Assembly (NCBI GenBank): GCA_964106645.2
Contig: OZ067040.1
Length of the DNA stretch: 64,000 bases
Reading direction: 5' to 3' (one strand)
From: Podarcis pityusensis
Lineage: Eukaryota
Position 1 is the stretch's first letter, and each line of letters begins with the position of its first letter. Both the position numbers and the translations under genes were made by a program. The notes under the pieces are model-generated. The model had not been told where the DNA came from. It was given only the letters and a program-made list of their open reading frames with translations, and ran no database searches. This document shows positions 48,288 through 63,369 of this stretch, piece after piece.

Positions 48288-50492
48288 GAGGACTTCCGGG
48301 GAGGCGCCTCCGGCAATGGCGGAATTCCTCTGACCGGGAGGAATCTGCTTCGTGGAAATCTGGGTCTGGCCGCCACGGTGAAGGCGGAGACCCGTTAAAA
48401 TCACAGGTGGGAGAAGCCTGTGAGCGTGGAATTCGGTGGGCACCTTTTGCGCCTCTCCCACTCGCAGGGAACCCCAGTTTTTGGGGCTCCGGAGCGACGT
48501 GGGGTGAGCAGCGCGGTGCATCGAATCGTCTGCTTCTTCCATGGAGCGAAGCCGCATAGCTGTTGCCGGAGAGTGCTGACCTTTTCCTGTGGGCAATTTG
48601 ACTTTAAAGTAATTACCCGTGAGTAAAGCTGAAATGGAAGAATTGGATTTCTAAATGTTTAATTTGGTATCGTAACGGAGAGGTTCAAAACAGGAAGTCC
48701 GCCTTCCCCTTTTGAAAATAGCCTGAGGCAATGAAGTTGCAAGCTGGAGTCCTGGAAGGTCTTTTGTAAAAGATTAAATTTCCAATGGTAAAGAACATTA
48801 AACCCCCTCTTGGAGGCAGGAGAAGAGAGGGGGAAGTTGCGGATTGAATATGCCTGCGGGAGAGAGCGAAGAGACTTAAAACACCGCCGCTCTGACCCTG
48901 GAAACGGGCTGCTAGTAGGACTGACGTCTTTTGGAATGTTCATTGACAGCGTTTAGAACGTTCATTGACAGTTAGTCAAATAAGAGAAATACATTGTTTC
49001 TACTGTCTCCAGCTGCTTTAAAAAGGAGTAAAAGTAACTGAAAATTGAAACTAAGTTGAAACTAATCTTGGATTGTTTAAAAGAGGATACTATTGACTAT
49101 TACAAATAGAAACTGTTTCCCCCTAGTGGAAGCCTTTGAAACCGGTTGCTTTACAAGAGCTGGGCTAGGGGAATTTCCAGCTGCAAGTTAAAAACCGTGA
49201 GACTCTGGGACTGACCTTGAATCTTTTAAGTGTTATGGTAAATGGAAGAGGAAAAACAGACCAGTCAACTGTTGACAAAACATTAAGGTCTGGGAGGACT
49301 TGGTAACAATCCAGGAGAGGTCTATCATTAGGCCCTCCTGCTCTATCTGTTGTTGTCTTTGTACCAGTATATTTAAAACCAAGGGGAATGTCAACAGAAG
49401 AGGCTTTAGTGGCTGCATTATACAAGATAAATGACTCATTGGATCAGCTTCACAGGAAAATGGACATGATAAATGCGAAAGTGGATGTTTCAATTACTAA
49501 AACTAACTTAAATACAGAAAGTATAAATAATACCAATATAGAAACCACCCAGAAATTGATACAAGAACCTATTTTGATATGGCAAACTGTGGAGGAAGTT
49601 AGGGAGAGCTGTTGTTGCTGAGGGTAGAGTGACACAACTGGAGAGAAAGAGAAAGAGAGCCCCAGCCCTACAGAGGCAATTTGATGATCATAAGTTGACG
49701 CTTGCTACGACTGAACTTAAAGAAAAACAGACGAATTTGAGGATTAGAGTTCACCTTTGGTGGACATGCCCAAGGATTAAGACACTCTGGGAGATGATTC
49801 ATAACGAAATGAAAAAGGTATTTAAATATACCCTTTAGAAGAAACCAGAGGCCTTTGTCCTGGGCATGGTCGGCCAATTGGTGTTAAAGAAGGATAGTAT
49901 TTTCTTCATGTATGCAACAATAGCAGCAAGAATACTAATTGTGAAGTACTGGAAGACACAAGATTTATCCATTCGGGAAGAATGGCAGATGAAGTTGATG
50001 GACTATATGGAATTGGCGGAAACAACTGGCAGAAATCCGAGACCAGGGAGAAGAGTCAGTGGAAGAAGACTGGAAAAAGTTTAAGACTGTTTATAGAAAT
50101 ACTGTAAAATAATGAATGTTAGAAAAATGTTGGAATGAAGTTATATGGCTTTAGTAGAAATATTATAAGGAATCAAGTATAAATAGATTAATAGTGTATT
50201 AAAGGGAAAATAAGGCTAGAATATGTTAAGATAATTATAGGATAGAAAACAGAGGAAGATGGAAAGGAATTGCTGAAATAATTAACAGAAGTGGAAAACA
50301 AAAAGGGAGGTGTGAGGAGGTCGTGGAAATAAGGGAATGAAAAATAAGACATTGAAATTGTTTTGTGTTTGAAATGGTTTGTGTCTTGCTTTGTTAGTTT
50401 TATGTTTTTCTTTTTTGTTCTTTCTTTTTTTTGTTTTTCTGTTTTGTTGTGTTTAAACGGTTGAAAATTAATAAATATTATTTTTTTAAAAA
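48288..50492 (+). mobile_element. Internally deleted, 5'-complete L1-derived element (2.2 kb)
   Basis: 15-bp TSD TACATTAGCATTCTC (48273-48287 / 50493-50507); CpG-rich 5' UTR; ORF1-like coiled-coil remnant ending NLRIR; ORF2 C-terminus HLWWTCP...AARILIVKYWK...EEWQMKL; T-rich UTR, AATAAA, short A tail. Confidence 0.9.
49388..50100 (+). pseudogene. Disrupted ORF1 N-terminus / ORF2 C-terminus fusion of the L1 derivative
   Basis: ORF pieces 49388-49621, 49629-49838 and 49866-50084, separated by stops and a frameshift. Confidence 0.75.
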
Positions 50493-53470
50493 TACATTAG
50501 CATTCTCAAGGTCTTAAAACAGGAGAATCAGCTATGTTAAAACTTAGGCAAATGTCATTTACATTGCCTTTCACCATGTCTTAAATAGGTTATATATTAT
50601 GGGTGTCTCCTTGTGCAAGGGCACCGTGAACAAATGTGAAAGAATCTTCCTGGGCACCAACAGCACATTCAACTTCTCACCCACTAATGTATTTTGGAAG
50701 AATGAAAGCTCTATGAAAGCCACCCACATCACCATATAAACCCCCATCACCACCACTACTGCCGAAAACTTCTTCAGCTCTACCTCTTAACTGATGTCCA
50801 CAGCATGAACACGAATGATTGCATAGGGACATAGACAGTATGATCCAGAAGCAAAAGAGATGCATCATTCCATGGTGGAAACAAGAAGGAAACACCCAAA
50901 GGAACCAAGGAGCCCTGCCTCTTAAACTCTAGGTAAGTGCTGGAAAGATGTTGGGATCTTCTCAGAAGTGGCTTGTTAGTTGAGGCAGAGCTGTTGTGCT
51001 AGCTTCCTGGGGATGGATGAGATGTTGTGTGGTACAAACCAGCATTCCTGCTGGAGCATTTGCATAGTGCCAACCTCCCCTCCCCCTCCTCTGGATCTTA
51101 TGCAGCTGCATCCATTGTTTTCAGTCCTGAGTGCTATGCCTATATCATGCATCACAGCATAGCTTGTTGTTGTTTTTTTTCATCTTGTGAGGTGTCCCAG
51201 GGAATACTGAAGTCCAGACAATGTGCAACAAACCCACATTCTCACTATGTGCTGAACGTTGGTTTGACCTTTTCTGCCTTCTTCAGAGAGCTATGTACTG
51301 ATCCTTAATCAAAAAGTGTTGTGGATGCTCCCTATCTGTTTTCCTTTCTCACAACACTACTTCCCTTCCCATTTGATATGTTAAGCCTATTGCCAGGTGG
51401 CAGTTTCCTCCCCCTAAACGTAGCCTCATTTATGTGCTACCTGGCCTGCTTTAGCTTTTCCTCTAGCCATGCTTCTTACAGATGGCAATCAGTTTCAAAG
51501 GAAATAGGTACCTTTTTCTAATTAAAAAAATGCTTTCCCATAAAAACTGGAATCTAGTTTCCTTCGAAATTTAGATTTCCAGTAAAAGTCCAGTTCAAAC
51601 TGGCTGACCGTTCAGTGCGTTTCCTGATCCTCTTTCTTTATTTGTTCTGCAAAGTATCTATCACTTTAGCATGGAGGTAGAGGTTAAGGATGGGTCTTCT
51701 GATCATCCATATCATGGACCTCACAAAAACCTGAGATCCATTTTCCATGCTGCCTTAATAAAATGCAAAAAAAATAAAATAAATACCTTGCTGTAGTTGT
51801 TTTATTGTTAGGCACACATAATCTTATGAATAAGCAAGCTGCTCTGCAGCCGTTCAAACCCCTCTTTCTTATCTTTCACAGAAACAAAATCTGAATAATC
51901 ATGACCATATGGAAAGCAGACTTTTCCTTCACATAGTAGTACACACACTTGTGTTGGCTTATACTAAATTGTTCAACAGTTCTACTGAACTCTTTAATGA
52001 GCAGCAGCAGAGGGATCTTCAGGTTCAACTTGTTAATTAGCCATACGGCTTCTGGCGAGTGTTAGGTCGTAAATAATTGATTTCAAAGGTGTACGGCATA
52101 CATGATATTACACAAAGATGATCTAATGAGCAAAGAGGTTTCCCAGAACCGTTTTCAAACAATACAGATGGCATAGCAACTGAATGGAACCCTGATTCAC
52201 TTGGAGGGCAACAGTATGATAGACAGAAGCATGAGACTATTTTAGCTGCTATATATATCACACACATGTATATGTGTGTGTGTAAAACTATAAATGGACT
52301 TTCACGTGCTGTAGGCTCTGATTATTGGTTTTCCAAAGGAAAGGTTATACCTGTCTATGTGATGTGAAAAGCAAATATATGATAAGTTTATTTTGCTTAC
52401 AAGATTGATTTTTTGTTTGTTGATAACCTTTTCATTACTTAGCTGACACATAATACTTTGGGAAAATGTAGGAAAGCACTTATTTTTGTGTTATGCTGAA
52501 TCTCTAGCAGGGCCTAGGAAATGTGCACATAGCAACCGAATTTCATATATTCTCTGGTCGCTGGCATAATCTCCAGTAGGCCATGGGGCATGGGTATATC
52601 AGCCAGATTTTGCACATTCTCCAGCCATCACTGAACACTCTGCAGAAGGTCTTAGGGAATGGGCATATCTTGGCTGCACTGTGACCAAAAAATGTACAAA
52701 ATTCAGGCGAGATATGCACATTCCCCAAACCTATTGGGTATTATGCATTATGGCTGGGGAATGTTAAAAATTACACATAATGAACCGGAAATGTGGATCT
52801 TTATGGAAAGATTATGTGAACATTCTCCATGAGGACTGGTGAACAATGGCCAGTTTTTATGCACATTATTTGCACAAATTACATTATACATTGTTATTTT
52901 GCTTGTTATGCCCAATCTAAAAATAAAAAATTGAGTGCAGAGGAAGAAATGGGGTCATCATAACCATTTGGCACCAAACAATAACGGCACTTATTCTGTG
53001 GTTAGGTAGGTCCTTTGTCCTATTGATTTTGCATCAGTGGCATGGTGAAAGTCTTCCCATAATTTTTAGTTTAAAAGGTGGGAACTCTAGTTGTGCACAC
53101 ATATCTGTGTTGTCTAGGCTTCAATAGAGAAATATATGTGCCATATTCCTTAGTTCTCCATACACGCAGCAGAAATAACAGATGTTTACATTTACAACAG
53201 TGCAATTGAGAGCCTTACCTTGTCTTTTTTATTATTAATTCTTGAAATGAGAAGCACTAATGATAAGCTTCAACTAGATAATTATGAGACGTTTAGTGAA
53301 TGGTGCCTTCTTAGAACATTTGTTATAGTCAATTACTTCCTGATAAGACTTGTTTTACTAGGTTTATTAATTGAATTATAATCAGTTTACACAGACTCCA
53401 TGGAAGAAATTTGTGCTGACAAGGCTTCATTTCTAAAATTATCACCTAATGGAAAATATATATGCATTTA

Positions 53471-58661: not shown

Positions 58662-59000
58662 GGACTTCCGGGGTGGCGCCATCGGTAATGGTGGACTCTC
58701 TCTGATCCGGAGGGACTGGCTCCACGGAAAACGGGTCTGTTCCGCTACGGCGAAGCGGGGACCCTTCAAAAAATCGCAGGCGGAGGAAGCCTGTGACCAT
58801 GGGACTCGGCTGGCACCTTTTGCGCCCCCCCAATCCGTAAAGGAACCCAACTGCGGGCTCCGGAGCGAAGAGGGGTTAGTGGCGCGGTGCTGAGAGTCAA
58901 CTGTTTCTTCCGTGGAGCGAAGCCGCACAGTCGTTGCCGGAGAGCGCTACCTTTTTCCTGGGACAATTTGGTTACAAAAACAACTACCCGTGAGCAGATC
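58662..59000 (+). promoter_or_regulatory. CpG-rich internal promoter-like 5' UTR of the L1 derivative (also 48290-48620)
   Basis: Both copies start GGACTTCCGG (ETS-type site), followed by AATGG(C/T)GG (YY1-like); CpG density is far above the flanks. Confidence 0.55.
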
Positions 59001-59634
59001 AAACTTGGACAATTGGACTTTAAACAACGATCTGTGAGTAGAAGGGAAAATTGGATTAGAAATTCTTCTTAATTTGGCACTGAAGCGGGAAGGTCTAAAC
59101 AGGAAGTCAGCCTTCCGTTTCTTGTAGATAGATTAAAGCAAAGACATGGCAAACTAGAGTTCAGAAAATCGTTTGTAAAGGATCAACTTTCATCATCTAA
59201 AACTACTGAACCCCCTTCGGAAGCAGGAGAAGAGGGGGGATTTTTCCCCGATGGTTTAAACTTGCAGGAGAGAGTGTAAAGAAAAGTAATTTTCCACCGT
59301 CTTGAACCTGGGAGCAGGATGTCAGGACAGACGTTTTTAGGAAGTTCATTGACTATAGACAAATGTTTTTGACAGATAGTTAAAAGAAGAGAAACATAGT
59401 GATTCCATTGTTCTCTTTCGCATTTTAAAGGAACAAATACTGACGAAATATCTGAAAAAGGAAACTTTGTTGTTAGATCTGCTGTTAAAAAAAAAGAAAA
59501 GAAAAGAGATTGATACAAATAGAAGTTCTTCCCCTAGAGGGAGCTTGTGAAACTGTTATTAAACTTGAACTGGGGAGCTTCGCAGCTGCAAACAGATTAA
59601 GATCGTGGGAACAGACTTCTGACCTTGCATAACA

Positions 59635-60267
59635 ATGTATTCAGAGGCTCTGGTGCGTGCTTTCTGTAAGACAAGTGCTTTATTGGAACAGTTACATGAG
59701 AAGACGGATTTGATGACTGTGGCGATTAGAAATTTTGGACAGGTAGTGGGTATCTATATAGAACCCACCCAGGAATCAACTCAGGAGTGTGTTCTGACAG
59801 ATCAGATGAGGGAGGAGATCGTTGTTGGACCTCGGGTGGCAGAGATGGAGGGAGCTGTGGCCCAGCAGGAACATGAGTTGTTGGATTTGACAAATGAACT
59901 TGGAAAAAGCCAGATTTGGAGAGATAGAGTTTTGTTGGGCTTGGAGATGGGGGGCTGGATAGACCCCCCTATGCAGGGATGTCTTGACTTTTCAAGTCTG
60001 GCAATGGGCCGTGAGGAGTTTGGGGTTGTGGGGGTCCCCAACTTTGGAGGGACTTTGAAACATGCTTTTAAATACCACATGGAGTTCAGTGTGGATTATG
60101 GAAAAGGGGCTGATCTGTCGAGAAGGGACAAAAATACTGTCAAGTTGGAGTTTCCACGAGTGAAAGGACCAGGAGACAAAGTAAAGTACAGGTATAAATA
60201 TGAAGAAGATCTGTGGAAGGGACATGGAAGAGACTTAAGGGCCTCGGACATAAGATTACCAGGTTAA
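59635..60267 (+). CDS. Intact 210-aa ORF in the ORF1 position; ORF1-like N-terminus, remainder unrecognised
   Basis: ACAATG start; SEALVRAFCKTSALLEQLHEKTDLM aligns with EEALVAALYKINDSLDQLHRKMDMI of the sister element. Confidence 0.5.
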   Translation: MYSEALVRAFCKTSALLEQLHEKTDLMTVAIRNFGQVVGIYIEPTQESTQECVLTDQMREEIVVGPRVAEMEGAVAQQEHELLDLTNELGKSQIWRDRVLLGLEMGGWIDPPMQGCLDFSSLAMGREEFGVVGVPNFGGTLKHAFKYHMEFSVDYGKGADLSRRDKNTVKLEFPRVKGPGDKVKYRYKYEEDLWKGHGRDLRASDIRLPG

Positions 60268-60589
60268 TGAACTAAATGGATGAGACAGAAAGGACTGACA
60301 AAACCCGGGACCAGGAGGAAGAGACGTTGGAGGAAGATTGGAAGAAAGTTTTTTAAAAAAATTCTATTTAGGATTGTTTTGTAAAATTAATGAGTATTAG
60401 AAAAATGTTGGAACAAAACTATTTGGCTTTAGCAGAAATGTTAAAAAGAACTATGCAAGAATATGTTATGGTTATGAGAAATTGGTATAAATAAGATTTA
60501 AGTTTTAACTTCTAGGGTCTTTTATAGTAAGATAAGGTTAAAATAAATTAAGGTAATTTAATGACAGAATATTATGAAAAATGGGAAGG

Positions 60590-61370
60590 TGTCAGGGGTT
60601 CAGGGACAGAGGCACAGGGTAGGCAGGAGATGGAGAGCGATGGGGATGAATCCCAGGACAGCGAGGAAGAGGATGACAATGACTCGAGAGATTCCATGAG
60701 TCTTTCCAGCGAATCAGAGGATTCCCAGAAGGGGGCGCTGGTGGTCAAGGCCAGGGGAGCCCCAGGGGGGACGTGTCAGGAGCAGGGGGCCAGCGGGGGA
60801 TCCCAAAGTGGCAGCTGGGCGTCAGGACCAGCCTCCCCGCCAGAGTGCAGCGAAGGGGGTGGAGGTTTCAGTGTATCAGGGGAAGCGGCTCCGGCAGCAG
60901 AGAAAGGAGGGAGGTCGGAGCAAGCCACCCTCCCGGAAGGGGAGGGGAGTAGTGAAGGGAGTAGTGTAGCTGTTAAAAGGAAGGTTAGAGGTTGGGCGCG
61001 CGCGCCAAGTTCAAATGTAGAGGCGCGCGGAAGTACAGGGAGCCCGGAGGAGGGGCCAGGTCCCAAAGCCCGCAGGAGGGGGGAAGAGCAGTCTGATTCC
61101 GCGTCAGAGGAATCCAGGAGGGGCGAAACCCCAGCGGGCAGAAAGACCCTGCGGAAAAGGAAAGAGAGAAAGAGGTGGAGCAGCGCAAGCCTCTTAAACT
61201 GGTGCAGGGGAGGGACGGATTCAGAGGGGACTTCAGCGGTCTAAGCCTAGCAGACGTAGGGCTGCGCGCCTCGGATGTGAAGCAAACAATGAACTGCAAT
61301 AAACACTTTTGTATATAAGAAGAGATAGGCGTTGGTCTTTTGTGAGCTGAGACTTGAGGCAGCCTTGACA
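60590..61370 (+). mobile_element. Solo LTR (781 bp) inserted in the L1 3' UTR
   Basis: TGTCAGGGGT ... AGCCTTGACA inverted ends; perfect 5-bp TSD GAAGG (60585-60589 / 61371-61375); AATAAA at ~61298; the empty site is visible in the sister element near 50260. Confidence 0.95.
60630..61244 (+). CDS. LTR-embedded 204-aa ORF (227 aa from the upstream ATG at 60561); acidic/Ser-Gly-rich with a basic NLS-like tail
   Basis: Strong Kozak context GAGATGG; no stop from the first LTR base to 61244; MESDGDESQDSEEEDD ... RKTLRKRKERKRW. Confidence 0.45.
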   Translation: MESDGDESQDSEEEDDNDSRDSMSLSSESEDSQKGALVVKARGAPGGTCQEQGASGGSQSGSWASGPASPPECSEGGGGFSVSGEAAPAAEKGGRSEQATLPEGEGSSEGSSVAVKRKVRGWARAPSSNVEARGSTGSPEEGPGPKARRRGEEQSDSASEESRRGETPAGRKTLRKRKERKRWSSASLLNWCRGGTDSEGTSAV

Positions 61371-61820
61371 GAAGGATTTGCTGTTATAATTAATAACTGG
61401 AATACAAAAAATGGAGGTTTGAGGAGGTCGATGAAATAAGGCAATGACAGTTAAGGATTTGGGAATATTGGATCTGTTTTTAATTGTTTGTGGTTTACTT
61501 TTGTTTTTTGGATTTTGATGTGTTTTGTCTTTTTTATTTTTATTGATTTGTATGGTTTGACTGCTGTTTGCTTTTCCTTTGTTTTTTCTTCTTCTTTGTT
61601 TCTTTGTTTTTTTTGTAACTTTAAAATGCTTAATAAATATCATTTAAAAGGGGGGGGGGGAAGCAAGCGGTGAGCATGAAAGCTGCAGTTATATTGCGTA
61701 TTTTAGCTGCATACAATTGACATCATTTCCATACCATTCTCATGAGCATGGGCCAAGCTCCAATTGCACGTGCAACCCGTAAACATTATTCCATTCTTCT
61801 CATAAAAGGCTCCATAACTG

Positions 61821-62311: not shown

Positions 62312-63369
62312 ATAGAATCATAGAATCATAGAGTTGGAAGAGACCACAAGGGCCATCGAGTCCAACCCCCTGCCAAGCAGGAAACACCATCAGAACACTC
62401 CTGACATATGGTTGTCAAGCCTCTGCTTAAAGACCTCCAAAGAAGGAGACTCCACCACACTCCTTGGCAGCAAATTCCACTGTCAAACAGCTCTTACTGT
62501 CAGGAAGTTCTTCCTAATGTTTAGGTGGACTCTTCTTTCTTGTAGTTTGGATCCATTGCTCCGTGTCCGCTTCTCTAGAGCAGCAGAAAACAACCTTTCT
62601 CCCTCCTCTATGTGACATCCTTTTATATATTTGAACATGGCTATCATATCACCCCTTAACCTCCTCTTCTCCAGGCGAAACATGCCCAGCTCCCTTAGCC
62701 GTTCCTCATAAAGTATCGTTTCCAGGCCTTTGACCATTTTGGTTGCCCTCCTCTGGACACGTTCCAGTTTGTCAGTGTCCTTCTTGAACTGTGGTGCCCA
62801 GAACTGGACACAGTACTCCAGGTGAGGTCTGACCAGAGCAGAATACAGTGGCACTATTACTTCCCTTGATCTAGATGCTATACTCCTATTGATGCAGCCC
62901 AGAATTGCATTGGCTTTTTAAGCTGCCGTGTCACACTGTTGGCTCATGTTAAGTTTGTGGTCAACCAAGACTCCTAGATCCTTTTCACATGTACTGCTCT
63001 CAAGCCAGGTGTCACCCATCTTGTATTTGTGCCTCTCATTTTTTTTGCCCAAGTGCAATACTTTACATTTCTCCCTGTTAAAATTCATCTTGTTTGTTTT
63101 GGCCCAGTTCTCTAATCTGTCAAGGTCGTTTTGAAGTGTGATCCTGTCCTCTGGGGTGTTAGCCACCCCTCCCAGTTTGGTGTCATCTGCAAATTTGATC
63201 AGGATGCCCTTGAGTCCATCATCCAAGTCGTTGATAAAGATGTTGAATAAGACCGGGCCCAAGACAGAACCCTGTGGCACCCCACTAGTCGCTCTTCTCC
63301 AGGATGAAGAGGAACCATTGATGAGCACCCTTTGGGTTCGGTCAGTCAGCCAGTTACAAATCCACTGAG
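62312..63369 (-). mobile_element. Young 5'-truncated CR1 LINE (RT C-terminal half and 3' UTR)
   Basis: [31 protein letters not shown] and [17 protein letters not shown] in one frame with two nonsense codons (62918, 62483); (ATTCTATG)n tail; TSD TGGATAC. Confidence 0.97.

Follow-up and report, generated by a model that had tools for sequence, protein, structure and literature searches.

The 64,000-nucleotide stretch of Podarcis pityusensis DNA analyzed here (the window) carries on its plus strand a solo LTR of 781 bp (60590..61370; termini TGTCAGG...CTTGACA), assigned to family A, a young Ty3/Gypsy chromovirus. The LTR is flanked on both sides (60585..60589 and 61371..61375, plus strand) by the target-site duplication GAAGG, confirmed by an empty site, since 60584 is directly followed by 61371 in a contig of run X17. 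The solo state was presumably left by LTR-LTR recombination. The insertion resides in an older repeat with a LINE-like 3' end (58662..61660, plus strand), and the LTR flanks are collinear with a second copy of this host repeat inside the window (approximately 48290-50500). The host repeat is a 2.2-kb, high-copy sequence with a GC-rich head and a T-rich end, its two copies being 71–76% alike in blocks; a 214-codon frame in it (59623-60267) has no match in Pfam. At 62483-62917 (minus strand) lies the 3' part of a young LINE, which we take to be CR1-like, 97% identical to many copies and with 41,412 candidates across the genome.

The reading frame inside the LTR

One plus-strand frame is open from the second base of the LTR (60591) through 217 codons to a TAA stop at 61242-61244, and these codons (60591..61244) represent Pol residues 1322-1538 of full-length copies, i.e., the C-terminal tail of integrase, carried here as a passenger. 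Its intact state within a solo LTR is probably owed to the youth of the LTR. Thus, the solo LTR, its GAAGG duplication and its long open frame, as described in an earlier note on this DNA, were confirmed, and the same is true of the in-frame ATG in a strong Kozak context (60630..60632, plus strand; G at -3 and +4) and of the polarized product (net charge of -13 over codons 1-50 and of +10 over codons 126-217). The ATG is kept in 7 of 13 representatives, the codon at this position being ACG, ACA, ATA or GTG in the other 6. Downstream (all on the plus strand) are a basic cluster KRKVR (60975..60989; V128, R130, K131 and V132 invariant in 13 copies), a candidate half of a nuclear localization signal (NLS), a second cluster RKRKERKR (61152..61175; R188, R193, K194 and R195 invariant), a candidate NLS, and the motif WSSASLLNWC (61176..61205), whose L-x-W core after the basic cluster is also present in two distant clades, as LLCW and WLCW, on different codons.

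The LTR peptide yielded nothing significant in Pfam, an AlphaFold model of the tail was uninformative (mean pLDDT of 40, low even across the chromodomain), and an ESM Atlas search with the chromodomain plus tail returned chromodomain clusters only, at 0.75–0.83, to be read as leads. An antisense frame of 154 codons (60776-61240, minus strand), which has its wobble positions in common with the sense frame, is taken as a shadow of the latter.

The openness of the LTR by itself is only moderately unlikely. When the LTR was shuffled by mono-, di- or trinucleotides, a frame of 217 codons arose with P of 0.0015–0.005 on the plus strand and of 0.03–0.06 when counted over six frames; the question of chance openness, raised as a caution earlier, is settled by the comparative data.

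Continuation of pol into the 3' LTR

A genome search with the LTR gave 1,743 candidates, and the 40 that were scored are 99–100% identical, and hence uninformative on selection. All six LTR pairs examined delimit 6.5-kb elements with 5-bp target duplications and 0–3 differences between their LTRs. The Pfam order in Pol is RVP_2, RVT_1, RT_RNaseH, Integrase_H2C2, rve and SH3_Tf2-1, and gag encodes a Ty3_capsid domain and a zinc knuckle (Pfam); gag and pol are the sole ORFs of at least 300 codons in family-A copies, and env is absent. The pol ORF is in the -1 frame relative to gag, with a G GGA AAC slippery site and a hairpin in all seven copies in which both ORFs were found (10 examined). The parent is, therefore, a Ty3/Gypsy chromovirus and not an ERV, two assignments between which the earlier note had not chosen, and it is filed as Tf1/sushi-type by domain order, PBS and LTR termini rather than by phylogeny. 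The family-A chromodomain is degenerate and, at 21.1 bits (Pfam Chromo, E 2.9e-4), falls short of the cut-off of 25.1; those of distant relatives, at 43.3 and 30.6 bits, exceed this cut-off, align to HP1 and align without gaps to that of family A.

In two of the six full-length family-A copies, pol is a single frame of 1,538 codons that passes the integrase, the degenerate chromodomain and the polypurine tract and extends through 655 nt of the 3' LTR, so that the ORF begins upstream of the 3' LTR, one of the points raised earlier. The pol stop falls at LTR position 655, which is the stop seen in the window. In the remaining four copies, the breaks in pol precede the LTR, within which the frame stays open. 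The tails of Podarcis proteins P0004, P0005 and P0003 led to three further young families with stop-free pol-to-LTR frames of 1,551–1,594 codons (23 of 150 matches for family B, 16 of 150 for family D, and 6 among the 150 matches listed for family C), other matches in these families being mostly solo LTRs, 5' LTRs or broken copies. In the UniRef Pol P0004 of Podarcis muralis, the tail is present through the final residue. Across families, the LTR frame measures 209–232 codons and the stop is homologous. Among 150 LTR pattern matches in the loci examined (top-scoring and, hence, biased to intact; counted by eye), 133 are open to the stop, 11 broken, 4 cut by a locus edge and 2 false; on the earlier question of stops in relatives, 133 open frames thus stand against 11 broken ones among 144 assessable matches. 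The representatives used for comparison are top-scoring open copies, which biases openness itself.

A search with the SH3 family extended the comparison to more distant chromoviruses. Among the 14 loci examined, 8 continue into the LTR as far as the terminal motif, 5 are interrupted either ahead of the LTR or inside it, and 1 belongs to another, decayed lineage. One clade, with 72% (RT) and 61% (integrase) identity to family A, extends for 109 codons into a 432-bp LTR with an omega of 0.48 (8 copies; 2 delta lnL of 12.5), and a third clade extends for approximately 83 codons. In all three clades L-x-W comes after a basic cluster at the end of the frame, and the stop lies 17–22 nt past the start of the self-primer, i.e., into the inferred R. 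The ENA protein P0017 matches in layout. A tail profile search of 1.84 billion representatives returned 10 matches, the named ones all from Podarcis and none from plant proteins. A PSIP1 exon of the host genome has 100% identity to P. muralis and 99% to Lacerta agilis, as would be likely for a lacertid host. A decayed chromovirus with a canonical-looking chromodomain (L142 / L169; L142 read by eye), in which the frame ends before the polypurine tract, is the sole tail-less contrast seen.

Selection on LTR codons and the inferred transcription start

A codon model applied to 13 natural copies (177 gap-free of 239 columns) gives an omega of 0.293 for the LTR frame (2 delta lnL of 155.6 against omega 1), the dN/dS below 1 for which the earlier note had proposed to look. 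By segment, omega ranges from 0.17 to 0.44 and is lowest (0.17) in the last 27 codons, without which it is 0.32. The shifted sense frames show omega of 2.43 and 1.42, and the antisense frames 1.91, 1.85 and 0.37; the last value probably reflects the wobble positions which that frame shares with the sense frame, and is thus expected. In 12 of 12 frame-blind DNA alignments to the window LTR, third positions are approximately twice as diverged as first and second positions. Of the 177 columns, 63 show no amino acid change; silent variation is possible in 60 of these and occurs in 44. The families compared are 54–95% identical in protein.

Within six full-length copies, omega is 0.05–0.11 for the enzyme core, 0.12 for the chromodomain, and 0.323 for the non-LTR linker vs. 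0.320 for the LTR part, which, given these two values, evolves like the rest of the disordered tail. These estimates assume one tree, and families recombine, as in L116, an element with a B-like 5' LTR, a D-like 3' LTR and a PBS that fits its 5' LTR; recombination between families could blur the omega values but is unlikely to have created them. Overall, the LTR codons are under purifying selection as protein. Chance openness of a G-rich, T-poor young LTR, which the six-frame shuffle P and the 99–100% identity of the closest 40 copies might seem to favor, is refuted by the frame being in phase with pol and by the homologous stop, the frame lengths of 209–232 codons, the omega of 0.29, the third-position excess and the divergence of the families; short of an erroneous codon alignment, we consider it very improbable.

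In full-length copies, the bases after the 5' LTR pair, as an 11-bp duplex, with a word at LTR positions 634-644, AGAGGGGACTT, which is an 11-nt self-primer complementary to the PBS and marks the inferred U3/R boundary (61223..61233 in the window, plus strand). In all but one of 59 junctions (some loci overlap), at least 10 of the 11 positions are paired; this pairing shows covariation (changes on both sides, with four primer variants each having a matching PBS), and is found in the distant clades as well. Such self-priming is of the Tf1/sushi type (accessible part of PMC6317226). A putative TATA-like word, TTAAA (61194..61198, plus strand), not kept in all families, overlaps Leu-Asn codons 25–29 nt before the inferred start, and an AATAAA polyadenylation signal, which sister families have too, follows at 61298..61303 (plus strand). 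In Tf1, the primer is the 5' end of the RNA. Transcription would likewise start at 61223, 19 nt before the stop and approximately 590 nt downstream of the ATG. With the start at the self-primer, U3 would be wholly coding and transcribed only in the 3' LTR, and expression of the frame from a solo LTR is likely precluded because almost the entire frame would precede the point at which the promoter of that LTR initiates.

This arrangement bears on the suggestion of a separate accessory protein made from the ATG at 60630, be it by way of splicing, of internal initiation of the RNA or of transcription from solo LTRs. In MMTV (sag) and lentiviruses (nef), U3-overlapping coding belongs to separate genes with their own start and a spliced RNA, whereas the frame described here is the end of pol in an element without env and has no conserved start. 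The strong Kozak context in the window, the presence of some in-frame Met in every family and a donor-like GTAAG after the 5' LTR in families A-H would suit such a protein. Nevertheless, 6 of the 13 representatives lack the ATG, and the 13 have no Met position in common; codons that precede the ATG, and those that precede the LTR, show the same degree of constraint; transcription is inferred to begin past the ATG; and the AAG of GTAAG is dictated by the self-primer, distant clades having GCAATC and GTTTGC at this place. No joint starting at GTAAG was found among 15 of 19 joints in contigs from four possibly-RNA runs of relatives, contigs which span the element but are uninformative on transcript starts and on the strand. 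Altogether, an accessory protein appears improbable. Thus, the proposal in the earlier note of an accessory nuclear protein in U3 holds insofar as the LTR is coding and selected and a nuclear role is plausible, but its own start and its separate existence give way to a Pol C-terminus, and the sag/nef analogy is replaced by that with plant CRM elements.

A second alternative is that the frame is kept free of stops chiefly by demands on the RNA or DNA (avoidance of decay by shortening the 3' UTR, or promoter elements), the peptide being a tolerated and possibly cleaved-off spacer. The position of the stop 17–22 nt after the self-primer start in three clades, by which translation spans exactly U3, agrees with this view, as do a tail omega five times that of the core and the L-x-W codons, which are equidistant from the inferred start in two clades and lie over the TATA-like word. 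However, mere openness would give an omega near 1, many columns are invariant in protein while most of those able to vary silently do vary, and omega reaches its minimum in the last 27 codons. L-x-W, moreover, is encoded with TTA, TTG, CTT or CTG for its Leu and stands at another distance from the primer in L170; since the Leu codon varies, it is a protein-level motif, even over the TATA-like word. We accordingly assign a low probability to this explanation.

Possible function and relation to known systems

Our overall reading, held with considerable confidence, is that the frame constitutes the last 217 codons of a lizard Ty3/Gypsy chromovirus pol gene, which crosses the polypurine tract and all of the inferred U3, and that it likely provides a disordered integrase tail for nuclear import and chromatin tethering. 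The frame is continuous with pol, shares its layout with sister families and distant clades, is under purifying selection and has a degenerate chromodomain just upstream; the targeting role of the tail is proposed by analogy. Genomic RNA would extend from the self-primer of the 5' LTR to the polyadenylation signal in the 3' LTR and would thereby carry the 3' U3; Gag-Pol would be made via the -1 frameshift at G GGA AAC, and the protease would free an integrase with approximately 350 residues past the chromodomain, 217 of them from U3. The basic clusters may then act as NLS, and short motifs may bind host chromatin factors, standing in for the lost methyl-lysine cage of the chromodomain, a proposition for which we see an even chance.

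At the three positions that we take to form the cage of HP1, families A-H have N, R/K/E and T/F, yet their chromodomain is conserved. Chromodomain types I and II have been described (available text of PMC3059260). Directly after the chromodomain stands a pattern F-x8-FxGF, of which the F, F, G and F columns are invariant in a gap-free alignment (16 copies, three family groups), and the F, F, G and F of F-x8/9-FxGF do not vary among the 16 segments that were picked by this pattern in three clades. It is single in families A-H and tandem in distant clades, with shuffle P of 0.023 for one motif and of 0.0005–0.001 for two, for a pattern chosen after it was seen. The surrounding linker is acidic in distant clades and Ser/Thr-rich in families A-H; helix prediction is unreliable here. 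Among individual loci, F-x8/9-FxGF lies between chromodomain and LTR in L033:1410-1484 (minus strand) and, with two each, in L143, L145, L165 and L170.

A TIM is defined by a helix anchor, an acidic or Ser/Thr linker of 8–16 residues and FxGF (accessible portion of PMC9987994), and known LEDGF and HRP2 partners need FxGF, as far as the accessible portions of PMC9987994, PMC11740969, PMC11910589 and PMC10854676 state. In hydrophobic anchor, linker length and FxGF, the segments fit this published definition and are thereby candidate LEDGF-binding TIMs; the likeness refers to the definition only, since PDB searches (with a double-motif segment and with a 16-segment FxGF profile) did not retrieve LEDGF-peptide constructs. 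The TIM/IBM of IWS1, JPO2, KMT2A, POGZ and JIL-1 likewise combine a hydrophobic anchor, an acidic or Ser/Thr linker and FxGF, single or tandem (accessible portions of PMC9987994 and PMC11910589); the family-A linker is Ser/Thr-rich, not acidic, and the motif lies upstream of the LTR, outside the window.

Among the top matches of the young families, 36 of 131 (A), 35 of 105 (B), 30 of 68 (C) and 43 of 129 (D) insertions are no more than 1 Mb away from a chromosome end, i.e., 27–44% vs. 2.7% expected, and mostly at one end per chromosome. Among the controls, 6 of 150 matches to the CR1-like LINE are near ends (tied matches are mostly on C1 and C2), and the same applies to 13 of 147 older SH3 matches, 61 of which are on C19; these controls are not age-matched, and duplications inflate some counts. 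Most older SH3 matches examined have tails too, with less end bias, and so offer no tail-less control. This distribution suggests integration targeting, although tethering by LEDGF would rather predict gene bodies than chromosome ends. Young A-D copies cluster at 0–1.6 Mb of C2 and at the right ends of C5, C6 and C7. C19, a chromosome of 38 Mb, may be a W chromosome.

More speculatively, a motif-studded tail filling U3 may have replaced chromodomain reading altogether: FxGF TIMs would hijack LEDGF/HRP2 or another factor with a TFIIS-N domain, the basic and L-x-W end would provide nuclear import and a second tether, and copies would be steered to chromosome ends. We consider this extended scenario rather unlikely as a whole. 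HIV integrase uses the same LEDGF/HRP2 domain. If true, plant centromeric CRM would have its counterpart in vertebrates, and a mobile element would be seen to imitate the TIM of its host.

Among known systems, family A resembles Tf1/sushi-group (V-clade) chromoviruses in its Gag, PR-RT-RH-IN order, Tf2-type SH3, chromodomain, self-priming PBS and 5-bp target duplication. Its termini TGTCAGG...CTTGACA fit the TGTYANR...CNTNACA given for this group (accessible part of PMC3601003). It differs in having a chromodomain without an aromatic cage and a pol that runs approximately 350 residues past the chromodomain, through U3. In plant CRM group A, as described in the accessible parts of PMC3059260 and PMC3605345, the polyprotein frame enters the 3' LTR as well, and the LTR encodes the integrase C-terminus with a putative targeting part. 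There, however, a CR motif downstream of the PPT replaces the chromodomain and priming is by tRNA-Met, whereas family A has a degenerate chromodomain upstream of the PPT, self-priming, a vertebrate host and coding that fills the whole inferred U3; the likeness is likely convergent. Ty1 integrase has a disordered C-terminus with an NLS and a targeting domain, and the Ty1/Ty5 tails, which are long, disordered and Ser/acid-rich and contain NLS-like basic clusters as well as short motifs for targeting, are like that of family A in these features (available text of 10.1101/2022.07.13.499880). Both are Ty1/copia elements, unlike the Ty3/Gypsy family A. To our knowledge, the LTRs of Ty1 and Ty5 do not contribute to these tails.

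Thus, Pol running into the 3' LTR is known from plant CRM and disordered tails from Ty1/Ty5, and the case of a vertebrate self-priming chromovirus is apparently new in the literature searched; no vertebrate Pol-into-3'-LTR case and no retrotransposon TIM was found in this literature, although Repbase, Dfam, subscription papers and supplements may mention the overlap. Thousands of lacertid solo LTRs with a selected 200-codon frame mislead gene annotation, and such frames are ready coding material for exaptation. An LTR that is promoter and gene at once has its evolution constrained by the protein. If the tail targets integration, it offers a tractable young vertebrate case of chromovirus site choice after loss of the methyl-lysine cage, and the FxGF motifs open the LEDGF link to peptide assays.

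Fragments of the LTR frame appear under the name "hypothetical protein" several times in Podarcis. LTRs of one family are nested within another at L007-L009, L022 (C13) and L076, and four C13 copies have one common target duplication (segmental duplication).
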